A stretch of 30,267 bases of DNA. Origin: a virus. Made by a program: the position numbers and the translations under genes. Below, one piece after another: positions 11,690 to 30,267 of the stretch; position 1 is the first letter of the stretch; the number at the start of each line of letters is the position of its first letter. The stretch lies in UHGV virus genome UHGV-0229465. One strand, given 5' to 3'. A model generated the notes under the pieces. The model was not told where the DNA came from. It did not search any database and saw only the letters and a list, made by a program, of their open reading frames with translations.

Positions 11690-12096
11690 AAATTCGTCAG
11701 GCGCAGACCAGCGCAACCTACATTCTGCCGGACCCCGGCGAACTGAATAAACGCGTCCTGATCCGCCAGCGGGTGGATATGCCTGTGGATAACTTTGGCG
11801 TGGAGCCTCAATACCCGGTTGCGTTCCGGGCATGGGCGAAGGTTGTCCAGACCAGTGCCACCACCTGGCAGGAAACCGCGCAGACCGGGGACGCCATCAC
11901 CCATTACATCACCATTCGTTACCGCCGGGGGATCACTGCTGATTATGAGGTGGTCTGTGATGACAGTGTGTACCGGGTGAAACGTCAGCGTGATCTGAAC
12001 GGGGCGCGGCGCTTTCTGCTGCTGGAGTGTACGGAGCTGGGCGAATGTAGGCAGAGTCACGGAGGCAGCAATGGCGACTCCCTTTTTTCACGTTGA
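11686..12096 (+). CDS. Head-tail joining / head closure protein
   Basis: Overlapping start-stop with previous gene; 136 aa; position. Confidence 0.6.
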   Translation: MKIRQAQTSATYILPDPGELNKRVLIRQRVDMPVDNFGVEPQYPVAFRAWAKVVQTSATTWQETAQTGDAITHYITIRYRRGITADYEVVCDDSVYRVKRQRDLNGARRFLLLECTELGECRQSHGGSNGDSLFSR

Positions 12097-12577: not shown

Positions 12578-13134
12578 AACTGACGCCTGTTATTGCTGCG
12601 CTGCGTGCCCGCTGCCCGTATTTTGAAAACCGGGTGGCAGGCGCGGCACAGTTCAAAAATCTGCCGGAGGTCGGAAAGCTGAGACTCCCGGCGGCGTATG
12701 TGGTACCGGGTGATGACTCTCCGGGAGAAAACAAAAGCCAGACCGACTACTGGCAGGAGCTGAAAGAGGGCTTCTCCGTGGTTGTCATACTGAGTAACGG
12801 GCGTGATGAGCGCGGTCAGTTTGCCTCGTATGATGTGGTGGACGATGTCCGGCAGATGTTCTTTAAGGCCCTGCTGGGCTGGAACCCGGAAGCGTGCGGT
12901 AACCCGATTACCTATGACGGCGGCACGCTGCTGGATCTGAATCGTCATGAGCTGATTTATCAGTTCGATTTTTCGGTCATCAGCGAGCTGACTGAAGACG
13001 ATACCCGCCAGCAGGATGATCTGAACAGTCTGGATGAACTGCAAACGCTGGCGATTGATGTTGATTATCTCGAGCCCGGTAACGGGCCTGACGGCGATAT
13101 CGAACATCACACCGAAATAACCCTTCCTTCCTGA
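12574..13134 (+). CDS. Tail-associated protein (possibly Mu gp37-like)
   Basis: 186-aa ORF preceding the sheath gene; family uncertain. Confidence 0.5.
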   Translation: MKLTPVIAALRARCPYFENRVAGAAQFKNLPEVGKLRLPAAYVVPGDDSPGENKSQTDYWQELKEGFSVVVILSNGRDERGQFASYDVVDDVRQMFFKALLGWNPEACGNPITYDGGTLLDLNRHELIYQFDFSVISELTEDDTRQQDDLNSLDELQTLAIDVDYLEPGNGPDGDIEHHTEITLPS

Positions 13135-13142
13135 GGATCCTC

Positions 13143-13310
13143 ATGTTTGTGAAACCTGTTAAAGGGCGGTCAGTTCCTGACCCTGCCCGCGGCGACCTTT
13201 TGCCCGCCGAAGGGCGAAATGTTGACGAGAACAACTACTGGCTGCGCCGTGAAGCAGCGGGTGATATCCGGCGCGTGAATAAAAAGGTGAACACCGATGA
13301 CGATAAGCTT
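13143..13310 (+). CDS. Small protein preceding tail sheath (DUF2635-like)
   Basis: 55-aa ORF MFVKPVKGRSVPDPARGDLLPAEGRNVDENNYWLRREAAGDIRRVNKKVNTDDDKL, not in the ORF track; a conserved small gene occupies this position in Mu-like tail modules. Confidence 0.4.
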
Positions 13311-14793
13311 TAACACCATTCCGTCGAATACGCTGGTTCCGTTGTTTTATGCGGAAATGGATAACCAGGCGGCGAATACTGCACAGGACAGCGGGGCATC
13401 GTTGCTGATTGGTCATGCCAGTAACGGTGCAGAGATTGTTGCCAACAGTCTGGTACTGATGCCGTCGGCAGACTATGCACGCCAGATTTGTGGTGCGGGA
13501 AGTCAGCTGGCGCGTATGGTCGAGGCTTATCGCCAGACCGACCCGTTTGGTGAGCTGTATGTGATTGCCGTTCCTGAATCCACGGGCGCGGCGGCAACGG
13601 TTACGCTGACGGTGACCGGGGAGGCAACCGAAACCGGCACGGTGAATGTGTATGTGGGACGTACCCGCGTGCAGGCTCCGGTGACCAACGGCGATAACGT
13701 CGCGACGATTGCCAGCAGTATTAAAGATGCCATCAATGCCGTTCCGACCCTGCCGTTTACTGCCTCATCTTCGGCAGGCGTGGTCACACTGACCGCGCGT
13801 CATAAGGGGCTTTGCGGGAATGAAATTCCTGTCAGCCTCAATTACTACGGCTTTGGTGGGGGCGAAGTGCTGCCAGCGGGCGTACAGATTGCCGTGGCGA
13901 CGGGGACCGCCGGAACGGGCGCTCCGGTTCTCACCGGCGCGGTGGCTGCAATGGCGGATGAGCCGTTTGATTATATCGGCCTGCCGTTCAACGACACGGC
14001 CTCCGTTAACACGCTGGTGACCGAGATGAACGATACCAGCGGTCGCTGGAGCTATGCGCGTCAGCTGTATGGTCATGTGTATACGGCAAAGATCGGCACG
14101 CTGTCAGAACTGGTGACCGCAGGTGACCAGTTTAACCAGCAGCACATTACCCTGGCGGGGTACGAAAAAGAGACCCAGACGCCTGCCGACGAGCTGGCGG
14201 CAAGCCGTACCGCCCGCGCAGCGGTGTTTATCCGCAACGATCCGGCTCGTCCCACGCAGACCGGTGAGCTGGTGGGTATGCTGCCTGCGCCGAAGGGGAA
14301 ACGGTTCACGATGACCGAGCAGCAGACCCTGCTGTCTCATGGCGTGGCAACGGCGTATGTCGAAAGCGGGGTGCTGCGCATTCAGCGTGATGTCACCACG
14401 TACAGGAAAAACGCTTACGGTGTTGCGGATAACAGCTACCTCGACAGCGAGACGCTGCATACCAGCGCGTATGTGCTGCGCAAACTGAAATCCGTCATTA
14501 CCAGTAAGTACGGGCGTCACAAGCTTGCCAGCGACGGTACCCGCTTTGGTCCCGGTCAGGCGATTGTCACCCCGGCGGTGATCAAAGGGGAACTGCTGGC
14601 AACCTACCGTCAGCTCGAGCGTGCGGGGATCGTGGAAAACTACGAACTGTTCAAGCAGTACCTGGTTGTGGAGCGTGATGCCAGCGATCCGAACCGCCTG
14701 AACACGCTGTTCCCGCCTGACTATGTTAACCAGTTGCGTGTCTTTGCCGTGGTTAACCAGTTCCGTCTTCAGTATTCAGAGGAGTCTGCATAA
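13297..14793 (+). CDS. Tail sheath protein (Mu gpL-like)
   Basis: 498 aa; AAGGTGA RBS; followed directly by the tube gene. Confidence 0.85.
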   Translation: MTISFNTIPSNTLVPLFYAEMDNQAANTAQDSGASLLIGHASNGAEIVANSLVLMPSADYARQICGAGSQLARMVEAYRQTDPFGELYVIAVPESTGAAATVTLTVTGEATETGTVNVYVGRTRVQAPVTNGDNVATIASSIKDAINAVPTLPFTASSSAGVVTLTARHKGLCGNEIPVSLNYYGFGGGEVLPAGVQIAVATGTAGTGAPVLTGAVAAMADEPFDYIGLPFNDTASVNTLVTEMNDTSGRWSYARQLYGHVYTAKIGTLSELVTAGDQFNQQHITLAGYEKETQTPADELAASRTARAAVFIRNDPARPTQTGELVGMLPAPKGKRFTMTEQQTLLSHGVATAYVESGVLRIQRDVTTYRKNAYGVADNSYLDSETLHTSAYVLRKLKSVITSKYGRHKLASDGTRFGPGQAIVTPAVIKGELLATYRQLERAGIVENYELFKQYLVVERDASDPNRLNTLFPPDYVNQLRVFAVVNQFRLQYSEESA

Positions 14794-15149
14794 TGGCCCG
14801 TATCGGGGGAACCTGTTATTTCAAAATTGACGGTCAGCAGCTATCGCTGACCGGCGGCATTGAGGTGCCCATGAACAGGACGGTCAATGATGACATCATC
14901 AGCCTGGACGGTTCAGTGGACCGCAAGGAAACTCACCGTGCGCCTTATGTCAAAGGGACCTTCAAGGTGCCGAAGAATTTTCCGGTGAACAAAATCACCT
15001 CGTCTGATGAGATGACTATCACTGCCGAGCTGGCGAACGGTCAGGTCTATGTACTGTCGTCTGCCTGGCTGCACGGCGAAGCGAACCATAATGCCGAAGA
15101 AGGCACGGTTGATCTTGAGTTCCACGGTGAAGAAGGGGATTACCAGTAA
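14793..15149 (+). CDS. Tail tube protein (Mu gpM-like)
   Basis: 118 aa directly after sheath; GAGGAG RBS. Confidence 0.8.
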   Translation: MARIGGTCYFKIDGQQLSLTGGIEVPMNRTVNDDIISLDGSVDRKETHRAPYVKGTFKVPKNFPVNKITSSDEMTITAELANGQVYVLSSAWLHGEANHNAEEGTVDLEFHGEEGDYQ

Positions 15150-15418
15150 TGAAAGAGCTTGAGTTAAAGAAACCGATTACTGCTCATGGCGAGACACTCT
15201 CCGTACTGGAGTTTGATGAGCCCACCGGGAAGGATGTCCGCGAGCTGGGGTATCCCTACCAGATGAATCAGGATGAGTCAGTCAAACTTCTGGCGCATGT
15301 GGTGTCGAAATACATTGTGCGGCTGGCGAAAGTGCCGCAAAGCTCTGTCGACCAGATGTCTCCGGCAGACCTGAATGCAGCGGCGTGGCTTGTGGCTGGT
15401 TTTTTCCTCCAGGCCTGA
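15149..15418 (+). CDS. Tail assembly chaperone, short (G-like) form
   Basis: 89-aa ORF between tube and tape measure; ends just after slippery T TTT TTC (15400-15406). Confidence 0.7.
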   Translation: MKELELKKPITAHGETLSVLEFDEPTGKDVRELGYPYQMNQDESVKLLAHVVSKYIVRLAKVPQSSVDQMSPADLNAAAWLVAGFFLQA

Positions 15419-15567
15419 CGGCTGAATACCTCACTGATCGCTTCTTTGACTGCGCCAGCTACTGGCGCATTAATCCTTTCGAATTGCTGAATATGCCGAT
15501 CAGTGAAATTCCCTTACTGGTCAGTCAGGCAAACAGGATAGAGCAGGAGAAACGCACACATGGCTGA
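15149..15567 (+). CDS. Tail assembly chaperone, -1 frameshift-extended (GT-like) form
   Basis: -1 frame ORF 15385-15567 has no RBS of its own, overlaps the 3' end of the chaperone and ends overlapping the tape-measure start (ATGGCTGA). Confidence 0.6.
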
Positions 15568-17392
15568 ATTTGAGCTTAAGGCGTTGATCACCGGTGTCGA
15601 CAGGCTTTCTCCCGCGCTGTCGAAAATGCAAAAGAAAATCCGGGGATTTAAACGCCAGGCGGAAGAAGCGTCACAGGGTGGGCTGGCGCTTGGTGGCGGA
15701 CTGGCAGCGGGTCTGACGCTTTCCCTGAAATCTTATGCCGATCAGGAAAACGCCGCCACCGGGCTGAAAGTCGCCATGATGGATGCGAACGGCGAGGTTG
15801 GAAAGAGCTTTCAGGACATCAATAAACTGGCTATTGGCCTGGGTAACCAGCTACCCGGTACAACGGCTGATTTCCAGAACATGATGCAGATGCTGGTGCG
15901 TCAGGGGATCCCGGCAGAAAACATTCTGGGTTGTGTGGGTAAAGCGACAGCTTATCTTGCGGTACAACTGAAAAAAACACCGGAAGCGGCTGCCGAGTTT
16001 GCCGCAAAGATGCAGGATGCTACCGGAACGGCGTCAGAAGACATGATGGGGCTGTTCGACACTATCCAGAAGGCGTTTTATCTGGGCGTTGACGATACCA
16101 ACATGTTGTCCTTCTTCACTAAAACCAGTTCTGTTCTGAAGATGGTGAACAAGGATGGTCTTCAGGCTGCACAGAGCCTTGCCCCCATCAGCGTCATGAT
16201 GGATCAGATGGGGATGAACGGGGAGGCGGCAGGTAATGCCCTGCGAAAAGTTATCCAGTCAGGATTAAGTGTTAAGAAAATCAGGGACGTCAATAAAGTC
16301 ATGGCCCGCCAGAAACTCGGGGTACAGCTCGATTTTACTGACGGCAAAGGAAGTTTTGGCGGTCTTGATAACATGTTTAAGCAACTGGCAAAGTTGCGAA
16401 AACTGACTGACGTTAAGCGAACTAATGTACTTAAGGCAATATTTGGTGATGATGCCGAAACCATTCAGGTGGTCAATGCGCTGATCGATAAAGGAAAGGA
16501 TGGTTACGATCAGATCCAGCAGAAGATGAATAAACAGGCCAGCCTGAATAAACGTGTTCAGGCACAGCTTGGTACGTTGTCCAACCTGTGGGAGGCAATG
16601 ACGGGGACCGCAACTAACGGCCTTGCAGCTATTGGCGGCGCATTTTCTGGTGACGCTAAAAATATCACGCAATGGCTGGGGGAGTTGGGGGAGAAATTCA
16701 CGAAGTTTGCGGATCAAAATCCCCGGGTTATTCGCGGCGTCGTCGGGCTTGCTGCCGGTCTTGCGATTCTGAAACTGGGATTGATGGGCGTGGGCAGTGC
16801 CATCAGTATCGTCAGCAGGATCATGTCGATGACGCCGATTGGCATGATTGCGACGGCGATTGCCCTGGCTGCGGGATTAATTATCACTAACTGGGATGTT
16901 GTTGGACCTTATTTCAAGAAGCTCTGGGAAACCATTGGTCCTTATTTTGAGGTTGGCTGGGAACTCCTTAAGAAAGTTTTTGCCTGGTCGCCGCTGGGGA
17001 TGGTGATCAATAACTGGGGACCGGTTGTTAAGTGGTTTCAGGATATGTGGGACAAGCTGAAGCCAATTATTGAGTGGTTTACTGACAGTTCCGGTGACAC
17101 GGTCGATGCCATTAACTCTGCGCAGTGGGGCGCAGGTGCCTATGATGCTTATGGGACGGGAATACCGGCGTGGGGATACACACCTTATCCGGCGGTGGAT
17201 CCGGCTCAGTCAAACAACGCCTCCGGTGCCACAGGTCCGAATCCCTTCATGATTAACAAAGCTTCTGCGCCAAAAGTTGATGGTGAGATCAAGGTATCTT
17301 TTGTGAATATGCCACCAGGTATGCGGGTTATGGAAACGCGATCCAGCGGTATTGATGTCAGCCATGATGTTGGCTATACGCGGTTCAGGTAG
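15560..17392 (+). CDS. Tail tape measure protein
   Basis: 610 aa, Ala/Gly-rich helical protein with C-terminal hydrophobic segments; follows the chaperone frameshift pair. Confidence 0.85.
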   Translation: MAEFELKALITGVDRLSPALSKMQKKIRGFKRQAEEASQGGLALGGGLAAGLTLSLKSYADQENAATGLKVAMMDANGEVGKSFQDINKLAIGLGNQLPGTTADFQNMMQMLVRQGIPAENILGCVGKATAYLAVQLKKTPEAAAEFAAKMQDATGTASEDMMGLFDTIQKAFYLGVDDTNMLSFFTKTSSVLKMVNKDGLQAAQSLAPISVMMDQMGMNGEAAGNALRKVIQSGLSVKKIRDVNKVMARQKLGVQLDFTDGKGSFGGLDNMFKQLAKLRKLTDVKRTNVLKAIFGDDAETIQVVNALIDKGKDGYDQIQQKMNKQASLNKRVQAQLGTLSNLWEAMTGTATNGLAAIGGAFSGDAKNITQWLGELGEKFTKFADQNPRVIRGVVGLAAGLAILKLGLMGVGSAISIVSRIMSMTPIGMIATAIALAAGLIITNWDVVGPYFKKLWETIGPYFEVGWELLKKVFAWSPLGMVINNWGPVVKWFQDMWDKLKPIIEWFTDSSGDTVDAINSAQWGAGAYDAYGTGIPAWGYTPYPAVDPAQSNNASGATGPNPFMINKASAPKVDGEIKVSFVNMPPGMRVMETRSSGIDVSHDVGYTRFR

Positions 17393-17491
17393 TGTACAAA
17401 ATGATTAATGTGTTTTTGTCTGGCATAATTTGGGTTTTCAACTTTAAGTAGTTAATATAATCACTCCTTACAAATGATTGAAGGGATGATT

Positions 17492-17986
17492 ATGCGTATC
17501 TTTGTGTTTTTTATATCTGCACTTTTATCTTTTAACTTGGCAGCGGAAGAGTGTAAGTTCAGCTTTAATGAGTCAGAATTAATCTCTTCTATAGGTATTG
17601 CACCAGTTAAGCAAGAGATAGTAAAGGATGAAGGAATAACTAAGCGTCAATATGAATTCAGGAGAGAATTGTCTTTTGAAGAAATGCTTGGCGATGATGC
17701 TGATGAAAAATATGAGCCGCAGTTTTATATATCTGTTTATAATCCATCATGTCCACAAAAGGTTATTATTTGGTTTTTCAAAGACAATAAAAACACACAA
17801 GCTTTAAGTAATGAGGTCCTTGCTGGTAGAGCATTCAAGTATTTAACTGGTGTTAATGAAAGTATTTTTGAAAATAAAATGAAAAAGTTTTCAAAGGTAC
17901 AGTCATTTGAATCCTTTGATGAAAGGACGGACTCTAAATTTATAAAGAGTGGTAATGTTTATTCCATTGATGTTCAACTCAGATAG
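17492..17986 (+). CDS. Secreted hypothetical protein (signal peptide), AT-rich moron inside the tail cluster
   Basis: AAGGGA RBS 6 nt upstream of ATG at 17492 (track start 17474); signal peptide MRIFVFFISALLSFNLA; very low GC; TATAAT -10 element upstream; T-rich hairpin region downstream. Confidence 0.55.
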   Translation: MRIFVFFISALLSFNLAAEECKFSFNESELISSIGIAPVKQEIVKDEGITKRQYEFRRELSFEEMLGDDADEKYEPQFYISVYNPSCPQKVIIWFFKDNKNTQALSNEVLAGRAFKYLTGVNESIFENKMKKFSKVQSFESFDERTDSKFIKSGNVYSIDVQLR

Positions 17987-18076
17987 TAATTGAAAATATT
18001 AGAACCCCGCTACATCTTCTGCGATGTAAATAACTGACAAAGCAGATTTGGCGGGTTTTTTGTATCCGGAGTTTAT

Positions 18077-19405
18077 ATGACGTGGAAAGACAGGCTTCAG
18101 GATGCGTCATTTCGCGGCGTACCGTTTAAGGTTGAAGAAGAAAGTGCGGGAACCGGTCGCCGTGTGGAAACACACGAATATCCGAACCGCGACAAGCCCT
18201 ATACCGAAGATCTGGGAAAAGTCACTTTCCGCCCGTCCATCACAGCTTATGTGGTGGGAGATGACTGCTTTGACCAGCGCGATCGCCTGATTGACGCGCT
18301 GAATAAACCCGGTCCCGGCACGCTTGTCCACCCGACATATGGTGAGCTGAAAGTCTGTGTTGACGGGGAAGTTCGGGTCAGCACATCGAAGAGTGAAGGG
18401 CGTATTGTCCGCTTTGACCTGAAGTTTGTCGAAGCAGGAGAACTCTCTTACCCCACATCAGGTGCGGCGACGGCGCAGACGCTGATGTCATCCTGTTCTG
18501 CACTGGATGACTGCATCAGTGACAGCTTCAGCGGTTTCAGTATCGATGGTGTGGCGGATTTCGTGCAGAACGACGTTATCGGTAATGCCAGCATAATGCT
18601 GGGGTATGTTTCTGATGCGATGAAAGTGGTGGATTCTGCCGTATCGGATGCCGCCAGGCTGTTGCAGGGGGATATCTCGGTACTTCTGCCGCCGCCATCG
18701 TCAGGCAAAAATTTCGTTGAGCAGGTGCAGAAAATGTGGCGTACCGGGAAACGCCTTTATGGTAACGCCAGCGACCTGGTCACCATGATCAAAACGCTTT
18801 CCGGTGTCAGCCTCGGCAGCGATCTGCAACCGCGCGGCGTCTGGAAAACGGACAGTAAAACCACCGCCACGGCGACGCAGCAGCGTAACGTGGTTGCCAG
18901 CACCCTTCGTACGACCGCAATCAGCGAAGCGGCGTATGCCGTCACCCGATTGCCTGCGCCAACAACTTCCGCGGTGATGCAGAATGCCGCAGTGGGGCAG
19001 GCAACAACACCCGTGCAGAGCACTGGCTGGCCTTCCGTCACGCATCCGGCACTGAACAATGCACCGGCGGTGAAAAACACGGTTGACCTGCCGACGTGGG
19101 AAGAACTGACCGACATTCGCGACACACTGAATACGGCAATTGATAAGGAGTTGTCCCGTACAACCAGCGATGCGCTGTTTCTGGCGCTGCGCCGGGTGAA
19201 AGCAGATCTGAATGCGGATATCAACACGCGCCTTGAACAGTCTGCACGGATCATTCAGCGCACACCGGATGAGGTTTTACCCGCGCTGGTGCTGGCGGCG
19301 ACCTGGTTTGATAACGCGGCGCGTGACGCGGACATTATCCGGCGTAATGCCATTACGCATCCCGGCTTTGTGCCGGTGATCCCTCTGAAGGTGCCAGTGC
19401 AATGA
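18077..19405 (+). CDS. DNA circulation protein (Mu gpN-like)
   Basis: 442 aa; N-terminus MTWKDRLQDASFRGVPFKVEEES... matches the DNA-circulation N-terminal signature. Confidence 0.8.
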   Translation: MTWKDRLQDASFRGVPFKVEEESAGTGRRVETHEYPNRDKPYTEDLGKVTFRPSITAYVVGDDCFDQRDRLIDALNKPGPGTLVHPTYGELKVCVDGEVRVSTSKSEGRIVRFDLKFVEAGELSYPTSGAATAQTLMSSCSALDDCISDSFSGFSIDGVADFVQNDVIGNASIMLGYVSDAMKVVDSAVSDAARLLQGDISVLLPPPSSGKNFVEQVQKMWRTGKRLYGNASDLVTMIKTLSGVSLGSDLQPRGVWKTDSKTTATATQQRNVVASTLRTTAISEAAYAVTRLPAPTTSAVMQNAAVGQATTPVQSTGWPSVTHPALNNAPAVKNTVDLPTWEELTDIRDTLNTAIDKELSRTTSDALFLALRRVKADLNADINTRLEQSARIIQRTPDEVLPALVLAATWFDNAARDADIIRRNAITHPGFVPVIPLKVPVQ

Positions 19406-20481
19406 ACGACAATGTCACGCTACGGGTAAATGGCCGGGAGTGGAATGGCTGGACATCGGTGCGCATCGGTGCCGGTATTGAACGGCTGGCGCGGGATTTC
19501 AGTGTGGAGATCACCCGCCAGTGGCCGGGAGATGAGGGTATTACCACGCTTCAGCCGCGCATTAAAAACGGTTCAAAAGTGGAGGTGCTGATTGGTGATG
19601 AGCTGGTGATCACCGGCTGGGTGGAGGCGACGCCCGTTCGTTACGATGCCCGTTCGGTCAGCACCGGTATTGCCGGACGCAGTCTGACCGCTGACCTGAT
19701 TGACTGTGCAGCCGAACCGACACAGTTTAACGGACGATCGCTGGTACAGATTGCGCAGGCGCTTGCTGCGCCTTTCGGCATTGAGGTGGTGAACAGCGGT
19801 GCGCCGTCGGGTGTTATTCCTGACGTCCAGCCTGATCACGGTGAAACGGTGATTGAGGTAATCAACAAAATACTCGGTCAGCAGCAGGCACTGGCTTACG
19901 ACGACCCGCACGGCAGGCTGGTGATTGGCGGTATTGGCTCAACGCGGGCACATACTGCGCTGGTACTCGGGGAAAACATCCTTTCCTGCGATACGGAGAA
20001 GAGTATCCGGGAGCGGTTTTCTGTTTACCAGGTGGCGGGGCAGCGTGCCGGAAACGACGATGATTTCGGTGAGGCCACCACCACCGCGCTGCGGGCCCGC
20101 ACAGAGGACGCATTTATTGCCCGTTACCGTCCGATGTATATCAGGCAGACAGGGCAGGCCACGGGGGCAGGCTGTATTGCGCGTGCTGACTTTGAAGCCC
20201 GACAACGGGCGGCGCGGACGGATGAAACCACCTATGTGGTGCAGGGCTGGCGACAGGGTAACGGTACGCTGTGGCAGCCCAACCAGCGGGTGATTGTCTT
20301 CGATCCGGTCTGTGGTTTCGACAATACCGAACTGCTTGTTTCGGAAGTCACGTTTACTCAGGACCAGAACGGCACCCTGACGGAAGTCCGTGTCGGCCCA
20401 CCTGATGCTTATCTGCCTGAACCCGAAGCCCCCGGCGCGCGGAAAAAGAAAAAAGCCAGAGTACAGGAGGACCCGTTCTGA
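19402..20481 (+). CDS. Baseplate hub / tail protein (Mu gpP-like)
   Basis: 359 aa; conserved order after the DNA circulation gene; overlapping start-stop. Confidence 0.75.
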   Translation: MNDNVTLRVNGREWNGWTSVRIGAGIERLARDFSVEITRQWPGDEGITTLQPRIKNGSKVEVLIGDELVITGWVEATPVRYDARSVSTGIAGRSLTADLIDCAAEPTQFNGRSLVQIAQALAAPFGIEVVNSGAPSGVIPDVQPDHGETVIEVINKILGQQQALAYDDPHGRLVIGGIGSTRAHTALVLGENILSCDTEKSIRERFSVYQVAGQRAGNDDDFGEATTTALRARTEDAFIARYRPMYIRQTGQATGAGCIARADFEARQRAARTDETTYVVQGWRQGNGTLWQPNQRVIVFDPVCGFDNTELLVSEVTFTQDQNGTLTEVRVGPPDAYLPEPEAPGARKKKKARVQEDPF

Positions 20482-21029
20482 TGAGGACGATTGAAGCCAT
20501 GCAGCGACAACTCCTCGGCCTGATTGGGCGGGCCGTGGTGAAAAGCATCAGTGCCGCCACGAAATGTCAGACCGTGGATGTGTCCCTGATTGCCGGTGAA
20601 CCCAAAGCCGGGGTTGAACATCTTGAACCCTACGGTTTTACCGCAAGGGCAAACAGCGGTGCGGAAGCGGTGGTGTTGTTTCCGGATGGCGACCGTTCTC
20701 ATGCGGTGGTTGTTACGGTGTCGGACCGTCGCTACCGCCTGAAAGGGCTGCAAACGGGGGAGGTGGCTGTCTATGACGATCAGGGGCAGTCCGTGACGCT
20801 GACCCGGGAGGGGATCGTGGTGGACGGTGCAGGTAAAACGATCACGTTTCGCAATGCGCCTAAGGCACGTTTTGAAATGGACCTGGAAGTGACAGGACAG
20901 GTGAAAGACCTGTGCGACTCCGGCGGCACCACCATGTCAGCGATGCGGCTTGCCTATAACGGCCATCGTCACAGAGAGAACGGTCAGGGCAGTAACACCG
21001 ACAAACCTGATAAAGCGATGGAGGCATGA
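20481..21029 (+). CDS. Baseplate spike protein (gpV-like)
   Basis: 182 aa; AGGAGG RBS; position in Mu-type baseplate module. Confidence 0.75.
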   Translation: MRTIEAMQRQLLGLIGRAVVKSISAATKCQTVDVSLIAGEPKAGVEHLEPYGFTARANSGAEAVVLFPDGDRSHAVVVTVSDRRYRLKGLQTGEVAVYDDQGQSVTLTREGIVVDGAGKTITFRNAPKARFEMDLEVTGQVKDLCDSGGTTMSAMRLAYNGHRHRENGQGSNTDKPDKAMEA

Positions 21030-21454
21030 TGGAACTGTGGCTGACGGTGAACGGTAAACGCACCTGCGCCAGCGCACCGCTGGATCCGCTGACCCGCGCC
21101 GTTGTGATTTCCCTGTTTACCTGGCGGCGGGCGGAGCCTGATGATAATGCCGACGTCCCGATGGGATGGTGGGGGGATACCTGGCCTGCGGTACAGAATG
21201 ACCGTTACGGCTCCCGACTGTGGCTGCTTCAGCGCAGCAAACTGACCAATCAGCTGGTGCAGACGGTAAGGGGGTATATCCGCGAATGCCTGCAATGGAT
21301 GATTGATGACGGCGTGGTGTCCCGTATTGATTTGGATATCCGCCGTACCGGGATTAATGAACTGGGTAACAGTATCACTCTCTGGCGTCGTGACGGACCG
21401 GTAATGATTTCTTTTGATGATCTGTGGAGTGCGATAACGCATGGCGGACAGTGA
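21026..21454 (+). CDS. Baseplate protein (GP46 family)
   Basis: 142 aa; position between spike and J-like genes. Confidence 0.75.
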   Translation: MMELWLTVNGKRTCASAPLDPLTRAVVISLFTWRRAEPDDNADVPMGWWGDTWPAVQNDRYGSRLWLLQRSKLTNQLVQTVRGYIRECLQWMIDDGVVSRIDLDIRRTGINELGNSITLWRRDGPVMISFDDLWSAITHGGQ

Positions 21455-22499
21455 ATTTCAGCGCCCGACGCTGGCAGAAAATATCAGTATGCTCCGTAAC
21501 GATTTATTCGCCAGGCTGGACGTCAGCGACACGCTCCGGCGCATGGATGAAGACGTGCGGGCAAAGGTGTATGCGGCGGCGCTGCATACGGTTTACGGTT
21601 ACATCGATTATCTGGCAATGAACATGCTGCCTGACCTGTGCGATGAGTCCTGGCTGGCGCGACATGCTGCGATGAAACGGTGTCCGCGCAAGGGGGCCAC
21701 GGCTGCCAGCGGGTATATGCGCTGGGAAGGTGTCAGCGATGGCCTGAAGGTGACTGCCGGGAGCGTGATTCAGCGCGATGACCTGGTTCAGTACACGGCA
21801 ACTGCTGATGCAACCAGCTCCGGTGGTGTCCTGCGCGTGCCGATCACCTGCTCAACTACAGGCGCGGTCGGTAACGCTGACGACGGTACGGCATTAATCC
21901 TGGTCACGCCGGTGAATGGTCTGCCGTCTTCCGGTGTGGCTGACACCCTGACAGGCGGATTTGATACTGAAGAGCTGGAAACGTGGCGCGCCCGCGTCAT
22001 TGAGCGGTATTACTGGACGCCGCAGGGCGGGGCTGACGGGGACTATGTCGTCTGGGCTAAAGAAGTGCCCGGCATTACCCGCGCATGGACATACCGTCAC
22101 TGGATGGGAACGGGAACTGTCGGTGTGATGATTGCCAGCAGTGACCTGATTAATCCCATTCCGGAAGAATCAACGGAAACGGCGGCAAGACAACATATCG
22201 GGCCACTGGCCCCGGTGGCAGGCTCTGATTTGTATGTGTTCAGGCCGGTGGCACATACGGTGGATTTTCATATCCGCGTGACGCCGGACACACCGGAAAT
22301 ACGGGCTGCCATCACCGCCGAGTTGCGTTCGTTCCTGCTGCGTGATGGTTATCCGCAGGGAGAACTGAAGGTGTCACGTATCAGTGAGGCGATTTCCGGT
22401 GCGAACGGGGAATACAGCCATCAGTTGCTTGCACCGGCGGACAATATCACCATTGCGAAAAATGAACTGGCGGTTCTGGGGACGATTTCATGGACGTGA
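21441..22499 (+). CDS. Baseplate J-like protein (Mu gp47-like)
   Basis: 352 aa; position and size. Confidence 0.8.
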
Positions 22500-23074
22500 C
22501 AAACGATGATTACATCCGTCTGTTGTCGGCACTGCTGCCCCCTGGTCCGGCGTGGTCAGCCAGCGATCCGGCGATTGCCGGTGCAGCACCGTCATTAACC
22601 CGCGTTCATCAGCGTGCGGATGCCCTGATGCGGGAGCTGGATCCGCGCACCACCACTGAACTGATAAACCGCTGGGAGCGTCTGTGCGGCCTGCCGGATG
22701 AATGTATTCCGGCGGGAACGCAGACCCTTCGCCAGCGTCAGCAACGGCTGGATGCGAAGGTTAATCTGGCGGGCGGCATCAATGAGGATTTTTACCTTGC
22801 ACAGCTTGCTGCCCTGGGCAGACCAGACGCCACCATCACGCGATACGATAAAAGCACGTTCACCTGCTCATCGGCCTGTACTGACGCAGTGAATGCGCCG
22901 GAATGGCGGTATTACTGGCAGGTCAACATGCCAGCCGCCACCAACACCACCTGGATGACATGTGGCGATCCCTGTGATTCCGCACTGCGTATCTGGGGCG
23001 ACACCGTTGTCGAGTGTGTGCTTAACAAACTCTGCCCGTCGCATACCTACGTAATTTTTAAATATCCGGAGTAA
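22490..23074 (+). CDS. Tail protein (Mu gp48 / e14 YmfQ-like)
   Basis: 194 aa; directly precedes the tail-fibre gene as in e14 and Mu-like tails. Confidence 0.75.
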
Positions 23075-23077
23075 TCC

Positions 23078-23725
23078 ATGCATCGTATAGACACGAAAAC
23101 CGCGCAGAAGGATAAGTTCGGCGCGGGTAAGAACGGTTTTACCCGTGGTAACCCCCAGACCGGCACGCCAGCCACCGATCTGGATGATGACTACTTTGAC
23201 ATGTTGCAGGAGGAGCTTTGCAGCGTGGTGGAGGCATCCGGTGCCAGCCTGGAGAAGGGGCGGCACGACCAGTTGCTTACCGCGCTTCGTGCGCTGCTGT
23301 TAAGTCGCAAGAATCCGTTTGGCGATATCAAATCGGATGGCACGGTGAAAACAGCTCTCGAAAACCTTGGTTTGGGAGAAGCGGCAAAGAGGAATGTGGG
23401 GACAGGAGAAAATCAGGTACCGGATATGAACAGCTTTGGTAACTCATTGACCGCCAATGGATACCAGAAATTACCTGGGGGGATGATTATTCAATGGGGG
23501 AGTTTTTCTGTCTCACCAACCGGAGGAAGTGTTGGAACAGTTGATATAACATTACCTGTAGCTTTCCCTGCTGCTTGTCGTTCGGTAAACGCTCTTATTT
23601 CAACTAATGATCCTTCTGCCCGTTCTGTGGGCTTTGATATTGGAAGTACCAACAGAACTAAAATCAGATTTACTTACACTTCTGCTACAACAAATTCAAT
23701 TTACTGGATTGCTGTGGGGTATTAA
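23078..23725 (+). CDS. Tail fibre protein: constant N-terminus fused to the currently expressed variable C-terminus (Sv)
   Basis: GGAG RBS; crossover site lies inside the gene at codons ..LENLGLGE..; downstream part is AT-richer than the constant part. Confidence 0.8.
23355..23380. repeat. Invertase crossover site (gix/pix/hix-like), left
   Basis: ctctcgaaaaccttggtttgggagaa is an imperfect 26-bp palindrome resembling the recalled hix/gix consensus; inverted copy at 25213-25238 shares the 14-bp ttggtttgggagaa. Confidence 0.7.
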
Positions 23726-23727
23726 CT

Positions 23728-24159
23728 ATGGAAAAGACATATTATTTTAATCCCTCTGATTCGGGATTTTATATTTCACCAGATAGCCAAACCATTCCTG
23801 AGAACGCTACGAAAATAAACTTTACTATTTATTCTGAGTTCGCAGGAGTTGCATGGCCTGATGGTAAAATACTTGGTTCAGATAAAAATGGTTTTCCAGC
23901 ATGGCAGGATGCGCCACCACTTACCAGCGAAGAATTAATCTCAATCGCTGAATCAAATAAACAGCGATTAGTTAATCAGGCCAACGAATACATGAACAGT
24001 AAACAATGGCCTGGTAAAGCGGCGATTGGTCGTCTGAAAGGTGAGGAACTGGCGCAATATAATTTGTGGCTGGATTATCTGGACGCACTGGAACTGGTCG
24101 ATACTTCCAGTGCGCCAGATATTGAATGGCCTACTCCTCCGGCAGTTCAGGCCAGATGA
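23728..24159 (+). CDS. Tail fibre assembly protein (paired with the expressed fibre tip)
   Basis: 143 aa immediately after the fibre gene; C-terminus ..LWLDYLDALELVDTSSAPDIEWP typical of tail-fibre assembly proteins. Confidence 0.75.
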   Translation: MEKTYYFNPSDSGFYISPDSQTIPENATKINFTIYSEFAGVAWPDGKILGSDKNGFPAWQDAPPLTSEELISIAESNKQRLVNQANEYMNSKQWPGKAAIGRLKGEELAQYNLWLDYLDALELVDTSSAPDIEWPTPPAVQAR

Positions 24160-24733
24160 CATCCGGCGCGGTACTGGTATCTGTTGCCGTCACCGCGTCA
24201 ATGTAATCCAGCACAGTGTTAAGTCGGGTGGTCTCTGCCTGCATCAGCTTCCGCCCGGCCTGCAATTTCAGTTGAATCAGACTAATGGAAGCCATTGCAG
24301 TATCAATCAGTGACTGACGTTGTGCTTCTGCCGCGTCTACTGCGGCGCTATGCTGTGTCTCAGTATCCGTCACCCATTTCTCACCATCCCATTTATCGTA
24401 TGGCGTTAACGGGGCGATAGTGGTTGTTTTTTCGGGGTAATCACCCGGAGTTGTGATTTCTTTGGCGTCTCCCGTTTCGGTGTTATAGACGATTTCACCG
24501 CGATGGTCTGGTACATATTCCCATGAGTTAAAATCTGCAGAGCGGCAGATTGCATAACCAGCTTTGTAGGTGCCTGGAGCATCTAAACAGGAATATGCCG
24601 GAATGCCGACACCAACAGCAAGATATTCAGTTGAAGCTGAAATATACTCCCGACTCATGACGTCAAAGTTATAAACAGTGATTTCTCCTGCCATAGTGGC
24701 AATTAATTCACTGTTTAATTCTGCGTTATTCAT
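24131..24733 (-). CDS. Tail fibre assembly protein, alternative copy (inverted orientation)
   Basis: 200 aa on - strand converging on the + strand copy; C-terminus ..LDYIDAVTATDTSTAPDVIWPELP parallels it. Confidence 0.75.
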   Translation of the reverse strand: MNNAELNSELIATMAGEITVYNFDVMSREYISASTEYLAVGVGIPAYSCLDAPGTYKAGYAICRSADFNSWEYVPDHRGEIVYNTETGDAKEITTPGDYPEKTTTIAPLTPYDKWDGEKWVTDTETQHSAAVDAAEAQRQSLIDTAMASISLIQLKLQAGRKLMQAETTRLNTVLDYIDAVTATDTSTAPDVIWPELPEE

Positions 24734-25266
24734 TATGCAGCCCTCACAATATAGTTAAAAGCGACATTTCGTGGGCGTGTTTCATTCGCACCTGCAGGTT
24801 TAGTCGTTGCCGCAACAACACCACCCTCTGTAATAGCCGGGTTGGGAATTGGGTAATTATCGAAGTCAATGGCTGGAGACAGGGGCGTGATTTGTTTTAA
24901 AATCGTGGTGCCTGTAAAACTTCCCAGAGTCTGGTCGTTAGTTCGTGAAGTCCAGATTCCCCAATAGTGGTTATGACTGACAATCGCACCGTCCTGAAGC
25001 GTTAATAATCCCCTTCCGTTATCCACTCCACGTCCGTCATCCCAGCCACGAATAAACTCACCGCGTAAATCAGGTAATTTATTTGTCGGATAAGCCTTTG
25101 CCAGTTCCGGGTATTCTTCAGCAGAAAAAGCTGCTCCGTTGCATTTCAGCCAGCCTGTTGGCGGAGTGGCTGAAGGCCACGGAACAGGCACACCAACGGG
25201 TAATGCTGAGCCTTCTCCCAAACCAACGTTTATGAAAATGTAGAAATAACGAGCAAATGGCATCAT
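24733..25266 (-). CDS. Alternative tail-fibre variable C-terminal cassette (Sv'), silent in current orientation
   Basis: - strand ORF with receptor-binding-tip motifs (..LPDLRGEFIRGWDDGRGVDNGRG..); its 5' end contains the right crossover site encoding ..INVGLGEG.., in frame with the constant fibre part after inversion. Confidence 0.7.
   Translation of the reverse strand: MMPFARYFYIFINVGLGEGSALPVGVPVPWPSATPPTGWLKCNGAAFSAEEYPELAKAYPTNKLPDLRGEFIRGWDDGRGVDNGRGLLTLQDGAIVSHNHYWGIWTSRTNDQTLGSFTGTTILKQITPLSPAIDFDNYPIPNPAITEGGVVAATTKPAGANETRPRNVAFNYIVRAA
25213..25238. repeat. Invertase crossover site, right
   Basis: ttctcccaaaccaacgtttatgaaaa; reverse complement matches the left site over its right half; 55 bp upstream of the invertase start. 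Confidence 0.7.
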
Positions 25267-25292
25267 TCCTGCTTTTGTCAGGGAGATCTACC

Positions 25293-25631
25293 ATGCTTAT
25301 TGGCTATGTACGTGTGTCAACAAATGACCAGAACACAGATCTACAACGTAATGCGCTGAACTGTGCAGGATGCGAGCTGATTTTTGAAGACAAGATAAGC
25401 GGTACAAAGTCCGAAAGGCCTGGACTGAAAAAACTGCTCAGGACATTATCGGCAGGTGATACGCTGGTGGTCTGGAAACTGGACCGACTGGGGCGCAGTA
25501 TGCGGCATCTTGTCGTGCTGGTGGACGAAGATTTAGAGCATGAGTTAATTAATGGCGGTTTGTCCCACTATTGTGGTTGGTATCCCCATAGAACAGGGCA
25601 AGATATAGTTGTTCATCATGTTCACTCATAA
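25293..25631 (+). pseudogene. Serine DNA invertase (Pin/Gin/Hin/Cin family), truncated: catalytic N-terminus only
   Basis: GGGAG RBS; MLIGYVRVSTNDQNTDLQRNAL...LVVWKLDRLGRSM matches recalled Gin/Pin N-terminus with catalytic Ser; similarity is lost after ~residue 85 and the ORF stops at 112 aa (family ~185-190 aa), where AT-rich DNA begins. Confidence 0.7.
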
Positions 25632-26031
25632 GCAGAACTTCGGTGCTTGGCGTTATATTGAACCTTCTGAGGGATTCTGAGGATGAGTGGAATGTCGCGT
25701 TCTGATTCATCAGTAAGTAGGGAAAGATAGACTTTATGCGTCATTGACGGTGAAAGCGGCTATACATAGAAACTACCGACCAGCATCAGCCTGAAAATAT
25801 AGGCAGATAGAAAAAGTGGTCCGCACTTGCAACTAATGTTAAACCGTTTGTAGATATTGTGCTTCGGGTACAATTCTGTCCTATCGTTGCACTTAGCTAA
25901 CTACTCTATATTTAATGCATTGTAATAAAGATATAAAAGTTGTAGTGTTGAGGGTCCAATTGCACATAAGAGTGCAAATTTGAGTTTGGCCGTAGGCTAA
26001 TGATGAGAGTATAAGTTGGATTGGGTGCACT

Positions 26032-27129
26032 ATGAAGAAAAAAATAGCAGATCTACTAGCCGTTAAAACAAATATATTCGAAGTGTTCATTGTTGCGGTA
26101 TTAATTGCCTTGGGCGTAAATATACTGTCATCAGGCGTTGTTGGTTATTTTAACTTGTCATTTTTGAAAATGATTGTTGTTGGTGCGCTACTAATAATTT
26201 TAGGTGCCACAATCTTTCTGCGTAACGCCTATCCTATGAATAATGGGAAATATGATTTTGAGGGGGTTGTGTGTTTAGACAATGAAAAAAAAGAGTTGAT
26301 ATCAATTGAAGGCTACGATTTTTCCGAAGAGGTTAGCCGTTACCTAAAAGGATTATGCGCGGAAAATAAGGCTATTCATAAATCATGGACTGAGGGGCCA
26401 ATTGGTTATGCTTTTGATTTTAAAGGGAAGGGGATAAATAGCAAAAAAATGAAAGCAAATGCACTATTTATCGAGGCGATTGAGTATTATGTTTTAAGAA
26501 AACTTGCTCTTCATTTAAGTAGCTATTTTAATGATGATGAATCTTTTTCCGATGATTATTTGGTTAAACTAGATAGGAAAAGTATTCCTGATGTTCTTAT
26601 GGGGAATAGATTTATTGATACTTTTTCTAGAGCTATGGATGAACGTGAGCAATTTATGGATTATAGTTCTTTACCATCTATAGGTAAAGTTGTATATGCA
26701 TATGGCAATGGAGGCGCAATTTTTGACCATTTTGAAATAGTTCTTCCCAAAAGTAGTTCGCTCACAAGAGAGAGCGACTCTAGTATAAGTATTGTTACTA
26801 AAAGATTTAAGATTAATTATCGCCCTGTGTTCGAGGGATTCGGGGCTAATCTACCAATGAAATTTGGAAATCTTTATTTGGGTAGAGAGTTTAATTCATT
26901 TTCAACTTATTCAGTAGGTTTGGTAGTTACAGTGGATTTTAATGCCAAGTCTTTATTAACAACTAAGGGATGGGAATATTATTGGTGGCTTGATTCGTTT
27001 TTGGGAGAATTGGAACAATCATTTTCTAAAAAAATGTTTTTATCTAAAATATCTTGGGAGCAAAATGCAGCAATGTTTCTTATGCTTGAAAATAAGAGTA
27101 AAATGCAGCACAAGAGAGAGAATTTTTAG
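26032..27129 (+). CDS. Membrane-anchored hypothetical protein (two N-terminal TM helices, ~300-aa cytoplasmic domain)
   Basis: 365-aa ORF in very AT-rich DNA; promoter-like TTGGCC-18 bp-TATAAG upstream; Lys-rich N-terminus then two hydrophobic helices; no recognisable catalytic motif. Confidence 0.6.
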   Translation: MKKKIADLLAVKTNIFEVFIVAVLIALGVNILSSGVVGYFNLSFLKMIVVGALLIILGATIFLRNAYPMNNGKYDFEGVVCLDNEKKELISIEGYDFSEEVSRYLKGLCAENKAIHKSWTEGPIGYAFDFKGKGINSKKMKANALFIEAIEYYVLRKLALHLSSYFNDDESFSDDYLVKLDRKSIPDVLMGNRFIDTFSRAMDEREQFMDYSSLPSIGKVVYAYGNGGAIFDHFEIVLPKSSSLTRESDSSISIVTKRFKINYRPVFEGFGANLPMKFGNLYLGREFNSFSTYSVGLVVTVDFNAKSLLTTKGWEYYWWLDSFLGELEQSFSKKMFLSKISWEQNAAMFLMLENKSKMQHKRENF

Positions 27130-28074
27130 ACAAATAAAAGCAGTCTAAATATCTACATACAGGAAAATGTTCGCATCTGTCTAATGGTGAACAATAGTGG
27201 CTGTAAAAGCTGTAATTTGGGTTCGCTATGTGCTGCATGCATCGGTTGGGCTCACTGCTTATAACAGACATTAATTTTATGACAGAAAGACATTCATGCT
27301 AGTTGGAATATGCATAAAACTCCCTCTACACTGTGTTTGTATACAGTATTATTTTACTGTGCAAATAAGCAGCATTATTGTTTTCTCTGTTCAAGTAAAA
27401 AGAAATGGATACACTCACAAAGATTTTGATGGTGGCACGATAAGTGTCTTCGTTTTTATGAGAGCAGTTGTTGTGGCTTCATCACTAGTACTTAGCATCA
27501 AGACTGATTTCTTGCTGTTGGTTCAAGTACTTTATCCCATAAAAGCCCACATCTGTGGGCTTTCAAGTCACTAGGGCACCGCGGCTCCTTTGCGTATCTT
27601 TTTTTGTATCCTCACCGTCTGGTCGGTGTCCTGCTTTGGCTGCTAACTTGCTGTTTTTGTTGGAATTATCCTTACGCCACCCAATCATGATTGGTGGAGC
27701 TGGCGGGAGTTGAAACCGCAGGCACGTCGTATGCAAGAACGTGCTGCGGTTGGCTGGTGAACTTCCAATAGTGCGAGTATTGAATGATTTCCAGCTGTTA
27801 TAGATTTTACGTATTTTTTGTATGAGAGGATTTGCATCTCCTCCCACCGATCCTCCATGACTTTACTCCACTGTCTATAGGGCTGCTGTGTGCTAGAAAC
27901 GGACATTTTGGTCAACTGAGGGCATGGAAACTTGTTCAATAAATAACGTATAATCAATTGAAAATAAAATGAAATAATTGTAATATCAAAATTCAAAGCC
28001 CGTAGTGAGTATGATTATCTATTCTTAATTTCAACCTCTTAATTCTAAATAAGTTAGACAAATCGGAATGGCAG

Positions 28075-28716
28075 ATGAAAATTAAGTTAACACCAATCTG
28101 GTTATGGATAAAACAATATCAACATCCCCTTAGAGTATTGGGGGGGATTTTTTTCGGGGCCGCTTTGATAGCAGCTTTTTTTTGGATATCAGGATTTGAT
28201 ATAGAACCTATCGCATTCGCTCTGGGAATGCTTAGTTCATTGTTCTTAGCCAGCCCATCGGTAGCAGAATATTTTTTACCAGAACGTAAACCTGTCAGAG
28301 ATATGACATATGAGGAAATCTTAAATTTCATACCCAAAACTGAACCATCTCAAGATTGGCATGGGATTTCAAGGGAATGGGCTAGCGAACGATTCCTTAA
28401 AGAAGACCCACGTCTTCGTTTTCGAGCCAAGTTCATTGATGAAGGAATTCAATGTGAAAATTTTATAGAAGATTGGGCTAACAATCATCCAGATCCCAGA
28501 GCAACTGGATATTGGTATGAGCTTTATTACGACGGAGCATTCCTAGACAGGTTTTTATTGGTATCTGTGGATGGCGGTAGAGCGGATATTCCTCCACCAA
28601 AATTACAAACTAAAGAAATTAGCTTACTCAATTATCATGTTGCGAAAATACATGACACCTCTGGCACGTTAGATGAGTATATTAAACGATCTGGTTTAAC
28701 TATTGCAAAAACATAA
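28075..28716 (+). CDS. Membrane-anchored hypothetical protein (two TM helices, ~150-aa C-terminal domain)
   Basis: 213-aa ORF, AT-rich; helices at ~20-40 and ~45-63; convergent with the next gene. Confidence 0.55.
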   Translation: MKIKLTPIWLWIKQYQHPLRVLGGIFFGAALIAAFFWISGFDIEPIAFALGMLSSLFLASPSVAEYFLPERKPVRDMTYEEILNFIPKTEPSQDWHGISREWASERFLKEDPRLRFRAKFIDEGIQCENFIEDWANNHPDPRATGYWYELYYDGAFLDRFLLVSVDGGRADIPPPKLQTKEISLLNYHVAKIHDTSGTLDEYIKRSGLTIAKT

Positions 28717-28788
28717 TAAGTAACTATTCATTTTTGTCCTGAGCGGGAGGATTAAAACCTCCGCTCTCCGATTCATCACTACAGAGTA

Positions 28789-29547
28789 TTAACATTCATG
28801 ATGCTTAATTTCCAGATCGGAAATTGCAATCATTCTTATTTCTTTCAATGCACTATCAATTGCTAATCTTATTCTTTGCCCATAATCATCTGGTTCTTCA
28901 TAATCCAGTGGAGACGGTTCTAAGCCAATATTTTCGACTAACTCCTCTAATTTTATAGTTACATCAGTATTCAAAAGAATTGCTTTTGTTATTAATATTT
29001 CAGTTAACGATATCATTGCAATGCTTAATTTTTGTTGTAATTCTTTGTTTTTAGTTTGGACGTCTTTATCATTCATTGAGTTCTCAATATCTGCTTGAGC
29101 CTGCTGAATTTCTTGGTAAAATTGTTTTTCTTGCTCTTCATTAAAATATGGCTGGTAACTGCTTGCAATCCATCCTGGAATCATATGAAGTTCAATTATA
29201 TGAAATTCATTGTCTGCCCATTTTTTAATTGCTAGCAATTGTGCATAGATGAATTCATACATATCATATTTTTTTTGCCAAATTTGTTGAGAGATCCATA
29301 TCTCAGATGTTATTTTTTTCTCTATATCTTTAATAGTAACTGTGTTTATAGATAATTGTTCCCGTAGGGTTTCGAAGTTAGAATTGGTTGCAGAAATTTT
29401 AGCCCATTCTGTAATTATTGAAACTAGGAAACTCATTGCTAGGGCTGCGATAACTACGGCGAGACTTAACCAGATAATTTCTGCTGTCGAGAAATTTGAT
29501 GACTGTAATGCCTTAATAAGATCAAGCAATTGCTTTTCTGTAAGCAC
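28789..29547 (-). CDS. Membrane-anchored hypothetical protein (one TM helix, helical/coiled-coil C-terminal domain)
   Basis: 252-aa ORF on - strand; GTG start with GGGGAG RBS; one hydrophobic helix near residues 22-46 then Glu/Gln/Lys-rich helical region. Confidence 0.55.
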   Translation of the reverse strand: MLTEKQLLDLIKALQSSNFSTAEIIWLSLAVVIAALAMSFLVSIITEWAKISATNSNFETLREQLSINTVTIKDIEKKITSEIWISQQIWQKKYDMYEFIYAQLLAIKKWADNEFHIIELHMIPGWIASSYQPYFNEEQEKQFYQEIQQAQADIENSMNDKDVQTKNKELQQKLSIAMISLTEILITKAILLNTDVTIKLEELVENIGLEPSPLDYEEPDDYGQRIRLAIDSALKEIRMIAISDLEIKHHEC

Positions 29548-29949
29548 AGGTTACTCCCCAAAAAATATTTGTTATGATTCAATTGATTACGCTAGGTTTT
29601 CTATTGTTCAAACAAAAAATAAAACACCACTGTACACCCATCAAAATTATATGGATAGATTCTTTATAGCAAAATTATGATCTGACAACATGATATGGTT
29701 CGAAGATGTTTTTATGGTAGAAAGGTATGCATGTAGGGTATAGGAGGTCGTGAAAGAAAAGAAGACTTCTGTACAGTTTGTCATCACGTTTATCTTCATC
29801 GGCTATGCAAGTCGTAATACAAGGTGGGACAAAACTGAGACACATAAGGCCTCACAATGGCTTGCAAGGCTTTACATGTTTTGATGTGGTGGGACGTGTG
29901 AGCGCAGTGTTGATGGGGTAATTCTTTGAATTAGAAACGGATTCTTATA

Positions 29950-29995
29950 ATTCGTAATGCGAAGGTCGTAGGTTCGACTCCTATTATCGGCACCA
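29950..29995 (+). other. Partial tRNA-Thr(CGU) (anticodon loop to CCA end) = prophage attachment core, attR
   Basis: attcgtaatgcgaaggtcgtaggttcgactcctattatcggcacca matches the recalled 3' portion of enterobacterial tRNA-Thr (T-arm GGTTCGACTCC, acceptor TATCGGCACCA); the 5' half is absent upstream and GC composition changes here. Confidence 0.75.
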
Positions 29996-30121
29996 TTAAA
30001 ATCAAAGAGTTACCCCATATTTAAATACACCACGTTTCCTCCTGTGCCGCATTTGTGCCATTGTAACCTTGGCAATTCATCAAAATACTGTTCTGACATC
30101 AGGCAGTGCAGGTGCAGCTAT

Positions 30122-30265
30122 TTAAACCAATTGCTGCCGCCATTCTTTGACGTAGTCAATCAGGGCGCGGAGCTTTGGTGCAATATTGCGACGCTGTGGG
30201 AAATACAGATAGAAGCCCGGAAATTGTGGAAGAAAGTCATCAAGCAGCGATACAAGCTTACCGCT
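30122..30265 (-). CDS. LysR-type transcriptional regulator, C-terminal fragment (chromosomal flank)
   Basis: - strand ORF open to the window edge, ending ...IAPKLRALIDYVKEWRQQLV*; typical LysR C-terminal character; outside the prophage. Confidence 0.45.
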   Translation of the reverse strand, partial: SGKLVSLLDDFLPQFPGFYLYFPQRRNIAPKLRALIDYVKEWRQQLV

Positions 30266-30267
30266 TT

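Follow-up and report, generated by a model that had tools for sequence, protein, structure and literature searches.

A tRNA-Thr 3' fragment as the very likely attR of an SfV/SfI-like prophage in Escherichia coli thrW

Why does a piece of a transfer RNA (tRNA) gene stand alone near the right end of a virus genome? We addressed this question for UHGV virus genome UHGV-0229465, analysed as one stretch of 30,267 nucleotides (nt), hereafter the window, in which such a piece occupies positions 29950-29995 on the plus strand. A preliminary description had taken it for the attR core expected of a phage integrated in a thrW-type gene, as P22 and SfV are. We consider it highly probable that 29950-29995 is the attR of an SfV/SfI-like temperate phage in E. 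coli thrW, the tRNA-Thr(CGU) gene next to proA. The kind of site is already known, being the attR of a thrW-integrating P22/SfV-type prophage, and thrW is a textbook integration hotspot.

The segment, ATTCGTAATGCGAAGGTCGTAGGTTCGACTCCTATTATCGGCACCA, is 46 nt long and was identical at 46 of 46 positions to the 3' end of the 76-nt tRNA-Thr(CGU) gene thrW of E. coli RX24, in which ARAGORN placed the anticodon cgt at position 34. The fragment corresponds to tRNA positions 31-76. It starts at the last base of the 5' anticodon-stem strand, covers the anticodon loop, variable loop, T arm and 3' acceptor strand, and ends with CCA. The 30 nt on its 5' side (AATTCTTTGAATTAGAAACGGATTCTTATA) were unlike the 5' half of the tRNA, and the identity extended leftward by 0 nt. 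ARAGORN called zero tRNAs in the entire window, and Rfam gave no match for the fragment at the gathering threshold; at a lax E-value, the T-arm/acceptor end alone was aligned weakly, as a sub-threshold match to the transfer-messenger RNA (tmRNA) model. The 46-mer occurred once in the window and was not recovered in any of 100 dinucleotide-preserving shuffles, even with up to 3 mismatches allowed. The fragment is exact and stands alone without its 5' half, just as first described. A change in composition across it had also been reported. The guanine-plus-cytosine (GC) content was 36.4% for 25632-29949 and 44.5% for 29996-30267, so that the shift is real and weakly visible within the window, which holds 272 nt on the right. 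It was clearer in RX24, where the equivalent right flank showed a GC content of 53.7% over 1 kb and 58.3% over 5 kb, and the left flank 33.6-36.3%.

The study of phage SfI prints the same 46 bases as common to SfII, SfV, SfX and P22, lists DLP12 as well, and describes integration into tRNA-thrW next to proA (PMC3636060). The fragment is identical to this published core of SfI, SfII, SfV, SfX and P22, and also to the attP core of SfI, in agreement with the attR assignment. In the SfI record, the 46 bp homologous to 29950-29995 are annotated as "attP core"; gtrA-gtrB-gtrI flanks them on one side, and int-xis, with int 14 bp away, on the other. The corresponding stretch is likewise labelled attP in the entries for P22, phage L and HK542, the last of which adds the note [quoted passage not shown].

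In the Campbell model worked out for lambda, attR has the structure P-O-B'; the P arm carries arm-type, IHF and Xis sites, and sib/tI lies beyond attP. We compared attR of the window, attL of RX24, attP of SfI and the unoccupied attB of strain 600468 in a four-way alignment. In this alignment, attR consisted of the attP left arm, the core and the attB right flank, and attL consisted of the attB left flank, the core and the attP right arm. As aligned, the four att sequences match the Campbell model exactly. The empty site of strain 600468 is annotated as proA, tRNA-Thr, a truncated LysR gene and paoD. We also constructed an artificial attB of 549 nt by joining proA-thrW to window positions 29996-30267, and a genome was counted when at least 80% of this sequence was covered in one place. 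The artificial attB was present in 948 of 5426 complete E. coli genomes, and all listed matches were 100% identical over 549 nt. The junction itself, as represented by positions 29400-30267, was found end to end in 6 complete E. coli genomes at 98-99.9% identity.

The homology of K-12 to the window begins exactly at 29950, at the right end of CP4-6. Together with the counts for the artificial attB, this upholds the earlier placement of the right prophage boundary at the fragment. The K-12 CP4-6 right end has the same 46-mer and the same yagP/paoD flank and is 98.7% identical to the window from 29950 onward; it differs in that the element on the left is CP4-6, with intF adjoining the fragment and no SfV-like phage. 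The displaced thrW 3' fragment of K-12 is known as ptwF, a name that is given in the HK542 annotation and is absent from the K-12 feature table.

To the right of the core, positions 30006-30121 are chromosomal intergenic DNA located 3' of thrW (the B' side of attB), which is joined to intact thrW at 100% identity in empty-site genomes. The 3' part of a truncated LysR-family gene (a yagP-like pseudogene) follows on the minus strand at 30122-30267, where it is cut by the window end; it is annotated in RefSeq for RX24, EC93, 600468 and K-12, and its coordinates were carried over from L002 (offset 9399). In RX24, the right flank continues with the truncated yagP-like LysR gene, paoDCBA, yagU and the ecp operon. 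The yagP-like gene is annotated as N-terminally truncated in the empty-site strain 600468 and in every occupied genome examined. Because the gene is truncated at empty and occupied sites alike, the truncation seems to be older than this prophage, and the "empty" attB would itself be a scarred locus.

An integrase and a full tRNA gene had been predicted at the far end, which lies beyond the window, and both are present there in close relatives. The RX24 and FDAARGOS_1337 lysogens contain the same junction at 99.4-99.9% identity. At the far end of the RX24 prophage, a tyrosine integrase gene is followed by an intact tRNA-Thr gene 14 bp away and then by proA and proB. The far end in FDAARGOS_1337 consists of proA, tRNA-Thr and an integrase gene whose protein is the same as that of RX24 (WP_001132557.1) and 99% identical to SfI Int. 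The two core copies are separated by 38.4 kb in FDAARGOS_1337 and by approximately 41.3 kb in RX24. It is in these two lysogens that the attL features, namely tRNA-Thr, the integrase 14 bp off and a direct repeat of 56 or 48 bp, were seen. A matching repeat and tRNA-Thr thus exist at the far end of the relatives, and the fragment belongs to no complete tRNA, so that neither of the outcomes named beforehand as contradicting the attR reading was observed.

The fragment very probably arose as follows. The phage attP would carry a copy of the 3' 46 nt of thrW, and a P22/SfI-type tyrosine integrase would exchange strands inside the common core. Joined to the phage-borne 3' copy, the bacterial 5' half would then restore a complete thrW at attL, with int 14 bp away. 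The original bacterial 3' copy would come to lie at attR, some 38-41 kb off and preceded by the phage P arm. Under this model, the lone fragment at 29950-29995 would be a displaced bacterial copy serving as a recombination scar and putative excision substrate, and not an expressed RNA gene.

The exact attL/attR repeat in RX24 is 56 bp (29950-30005) and extends 10 nt beyond CCA. These 10 nt, TTAAAATCAA at 29996-30005 on the plus strand, are common to attB and attP of SfI/RX24. In FDAARGOS_1337, the repeat is 48 bp and extends 2 nt beyond CCA, attL there being TTTAAATCAA (longer reading, CCATTTAAATCAA). Because attL of FDAARGOS_1337 is mismatched after 48 bp, the crossover is placed to the left of this mismatch, within the part of the repeat that derives from the tRNA. 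The P22 RefSeq entry NC_002371.2 annotates a misc_feature at 21300-21322 as a 23-bp attP core, ATGCGAAGGTCGTAGGTTCGACT, which aligns to window positions 29957-29979 on the plus strand. By analogy with P22, strand exchange in the present phage most likely takes place within 29957-29979.

To the left of the core, positions 29712-29949 (plus strand) form the P arm of attP that is kept at attR, a phage-derived stretch with homology to Sf phages, P22 and other prophages. The preliminary description had assigned the whole of 25632-29949 to att-adjacent cargo. This assignment holds for 25632-29711, and 29712-29949 has to be set apart from it as the P arm. Positions 29825-29949 showed 96-98% identity to attP of SfI, SfII, SfIV and SfV and approximately 80% identity to P22. 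In the phage collection, the last 181 nt of homology including the core (29825-30005) matched SfIV, SfI, SfII and SfV at 96-98%. The outer part, 29712-29824, is common to many other E. coli thrW prophages and is 77-84% identical to phage 21 and lambda-like phages. Within it, 29712-29816 shows 77% identity to DNA of the lambda b region, at approximately 27.36-27.47 kb of the lambda record and just upstream of lambda attP. Phage phi458 was considered as a free-phage attP covering 29712-29824 and was rejected, since its record includes the chromosomal yagP flank (the match runs to 30267); the record is therefore prophage-derived and is no proof that 29712-29824 is phage-borne. Species-representative genomes were also scanned for an exact pattern; the only hits were in Shigella flexneri, one E. 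coli and a single contig of a metagenome-assembled genome, all of which have Sf-type arms and lack the cargo.

In the P arm, the motif TGGGAC occurs at 29825-29830 and at 29890-29895, both on the plus strand, the second copy being inside GGTGGGACGTGTGAGCGCAG, of which the part TGGGACGTGTGAGCGCAG is identical in the window, SfI and P22. TGGGAC is present 9 times in 30 kb, and 2 of these copies fall within the 130-nt P arm (Poisson P about 7e-4). Two tandem copies are also found in the P' arm of attL and of SfI attP, and P22 attP has kept the motif at the positions that align with it. We infer that the copies at 29825 and 29890 are candidate arm-type Int sites. Between them, at 29849-29870, lies a hairpin, GCCTTGCAAGCCATTGTGAGGC, which a terminator scan scored as terminator-like on the minus strand and which is palindromic in the window and in SfI. 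In the entries for SfII and phage L, the stretch homologous to this hairpin carries a "terminator" annotation. In the free phage, the P-arm hairpin would be located downstream of int across attP, in the position of lambda tI/sib, and may have a regulatory role.

Two points weigh against the attR reading. The attL, int and xis are outside the window, and the direct repeat is demonstrated in the relatives only. The best whole-window matches are approximately 97% identical over 83-87% of the window. In addition, the pin invertase gene is truncated, and relatives carry frameshifted genes. The prophage may accordingly be defective, with its "attR" a fossil and not an active excision substrate.

Among other explanations, the one that survives best is that the fragment is the older scar of an earlier thrW element of the ptwF/CP4-6 kind, and that the present phage lies beside it or was swapped in by homologous recombination. 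We regard this as improbable. The DNA abutting the core is an Sf-type attP P arm (96-98% identity) and is contiguous with it as in a free-phage attP, and the cognate integrase, 99% identical to SfI Int, is at attL of the matching lysogens. A second copy of the thrW core, as a tandem array would leave, is absent from the window; a tandem array or bounded insertion was rejected on the same observation. If modules had been exchanged, that integrase would still have its functional attR here.

It is very improbable that the fragment belongs to a tRNA gene, whether complete or decayed by mutation into a pseudogene. The weak T-arm/acceptor-end match to the tmRNA model is all that speaks for it. Decay would not give an edge as sharp as that between 46 nt of 100% identity and 30 dissimilar nt before them; ARAGORN and Rfam call no tRNA, and the DNA on the 5' side is a phage attP arm. 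Chance or low-complexity similarity can practically be dismissed in view of the 46/46 match and the 0 of 100 shuffles even with 3 mismatches. The attR of an SfV/SfI-like phage in thrW is hence the reading that we retain below.

The element resembles the serotype-converting Sf phages of Shigella flexneri (SfI, SfII, SfIV, SfV and SfX) in its identical 46-bp core, in the 96-98% identity of the P arm and in the integrase of the matching lysogens. It also shares with them a HK97-type head, a contractile tail and the gene order of tail fibre, att-proximal cargo, attP, int and xis. The Sf phages differ in having a gtrA-gtrB-gtr(type) cargo, whereas here three membrane-protein genes follow a truncated pin gene and an invertible fibre segment. 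The right flank is E. coli yagP'-paoD, whereas the primers of the S. flexneri study targeted a yaiC flank (PMC3636060). The Salmonella phage P22 has the same tRNA-derived core, an arm of approximately 80% identity, the conserved TGGGAC motif and the layout of cargo, attP, int and xis, but it is a podovirus with a gtrABC cargo, and its CCA is followed by GTTAAATCAA in place of TTAAAATCAA. The likeness to lambda lies in the heterobivalent logic of a tyrosine integrase: attR keeps a long P arm, the arm motifs are repeated, and a terminator-like hairpin stands on the side away from int. The roles of motifs and hairpin here would be analogous. Lambda differs in its 15-bp intergenic core, as against a tRNA 3' half with 46-56 bp of identity in the present element.

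For annotation, the junction fixes the prophage-chromosome boundary to within the 46-56 bp core, identifies the integrase type expected upstream as that of the SfI/P22 family, and marks 25632-29711 as a phage accessory-gene locus. It adds nothing to existing knowledge of tRNA-targeted integration; any further value is to be sought in the cargo, whose uncharacterised genes stand in place of gtrABC.

The att-proximal cargo (25632-29711) has a low GC content (36%) and is located between the truncated pin invertase gene and the P arm. Its right edge is near 29711, or at 29824 when judged against the Sf phages, and the last 125-240 bp or so before the core belong to the attP arm. SfI and P22 carry gtrABC where this cargo stands. 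Upstream of attP in the window, no gtrA-gtrB-gtr(type) cluster was found, and there was no family or DNA match to the Sf gtr genes. The element thus integrates in the manner of an SfV-type phage without being a gtr serotype converter. The complete cargo was present in 6 of 5426 E. coli genomes, and the cargo DNA had no match among 50,697 phage records.

The cargo contains a 365-amino-acid (aa) gene (26032-27129, plus strand), a 213-aa gene (28075-28716, plus strand) and a 252-aa gene (28789-29547, minus strand), and N-terminal membrane helices were predicted for the three proteins from translations and structure models. The proteins were assigned to no family in Pfam, PHROG or NCBIfam, and a profile search against PDB gave nothing significant. 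PADLOC on the cargo returned one marginal match, PDC-S50 (E = 6e-4), for the 213-aa protein. The structure model of the 365-aa protein was confident, with 2 transmembrane helices and an alpha/beta domain, and had no clear structural neighbour; the model of the 252-aa protein was all-helical with a low pTM (0.36). Proteins homologous to the 365-aa and 252-aa products are annotated as "hypothetical" and have a scattered distribution in Enterobacterales, Aeromonas and Pseudomonas, at prophage ends and in variable islands. Some sources label the 365-aa homologues as DUF3137, and a Citrobacter homologue adjoins a putative AbiC gene. A conserved partnership of the 213-aa and 252-aa genes was not supported, as the 252-aa family is found by itself in islands of Klebsiella and, in Aeromonas, as an insertion of one gene.

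Positions 27541-27903 form a conserved spacer between two variable cargo slots, and sister prophages carry Avs2 or RnlAB 3' of pin. Given these systems in the sister prophages, the DNA from pin to attR is an accessory/defence hotspot with two slots.

Within the spacer, a stretch of approximately 180 bp (27541-27719) matched, at 87% identity, the intergenic ypjA-ssrA flank of E. coli together with the last 28 nt or so of ssrA, the tmRNA gene. The ssrA 3' end lies at about 27692-27719 as the reverse complement, and the homology stops sharply within ssrA. The stretch is joined at the microhomology TGAA(A/C)CCG to a sequence that follows the intact pinE stop codon in other prophages. By its sequence, the ssrA 3'-end stretch looks like a second, foreign att-type scar; there was no second copy of the ssrA core in the window. 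The same part of the spacer (27679-27748, plus strand) gave a weak Rfam match to CssrB (Shigella small RNA B) of 24.6 bits against a gathering score of 76. This match is essentially a GC-rich hairpin, GCAGGCACGTCGTATGCAAGAACGTGCTGCG, which in other prophages sits directly 3' of pinE and is therefore probably a terminator. One tentative and rather doubtful proposal is that the three cargo proteins are new single-gene anti-phage or superinfection-exclusion determinants, the ssrA scar recording capture from an ssrA-linked island.

The left edge of the cargo is formed by the truncated Pin/Hin-type DNA invertase gene (25257-25631, plus strand), in which PF00239 covers residues 15-91 only; RefSeq describes the gene in RX24 and FDAARGOS_1337 as "pinE, incomplete, missing C-terminus". 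Next to it, positions 23362-25231 form an invertible tail-fibre segment bounded by 20-nt inverted repeats (AAACCTTGGTTTGGGAGAAG and CTTCTCCCAAACCAACGTTT), with alternative fibre and assembly genes on both strands. The segment has the opposite orientation in FDAARGOS_1337 to that in the window and RX24, despite a Pin-type invertase cut to its N-terminal resolvase domain.

The phage body is SfV-like, with a HK97-type head and a Mu-like contractile tail. The RX24 prophage encodes a HK97-type head, tail sheath and tube, tape measure, baseplate, tail fibres and the truncated pinE, and 8797-23428 of the window is 97% identical to it. The body genes, taken from the RefSeq annotation of RX24, are those for terminase, portal, HK97 protease/capsid, sheath, tube, tape measure, baseplate J/gp46/V and fibre. 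Positions 22253-23429 are 96% identical to the SfI tail genes.

Two other segments set the window apart from its close relatives. The region 1115-5141, upstream of terminase, encodes the Q antiterminator, lysis functions and a KilA-N protein and is unlike both close lysogens, being a mosaic replacement; within it, the open reading frames (ORFs) at 3807-4226 and 4653-5060 matched no Pfam family. The second segment, at 17383-18049, is an insert of 31% GC between the tape-measure and DNA-circularisation genes, with an ORF of 170 aa at 17474-17986. The encoded protein has an N-terminal hydrophobic stretch that is signal-peptide-like by eye and gave no Pfam or PADLOC match. Neither the RX24 nor the FDAARGOS_1337 prophage has the insert, which 85 E. 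coli genomes contain, annotated there as a "hypothetical protein"; it is a moron within the tail module.
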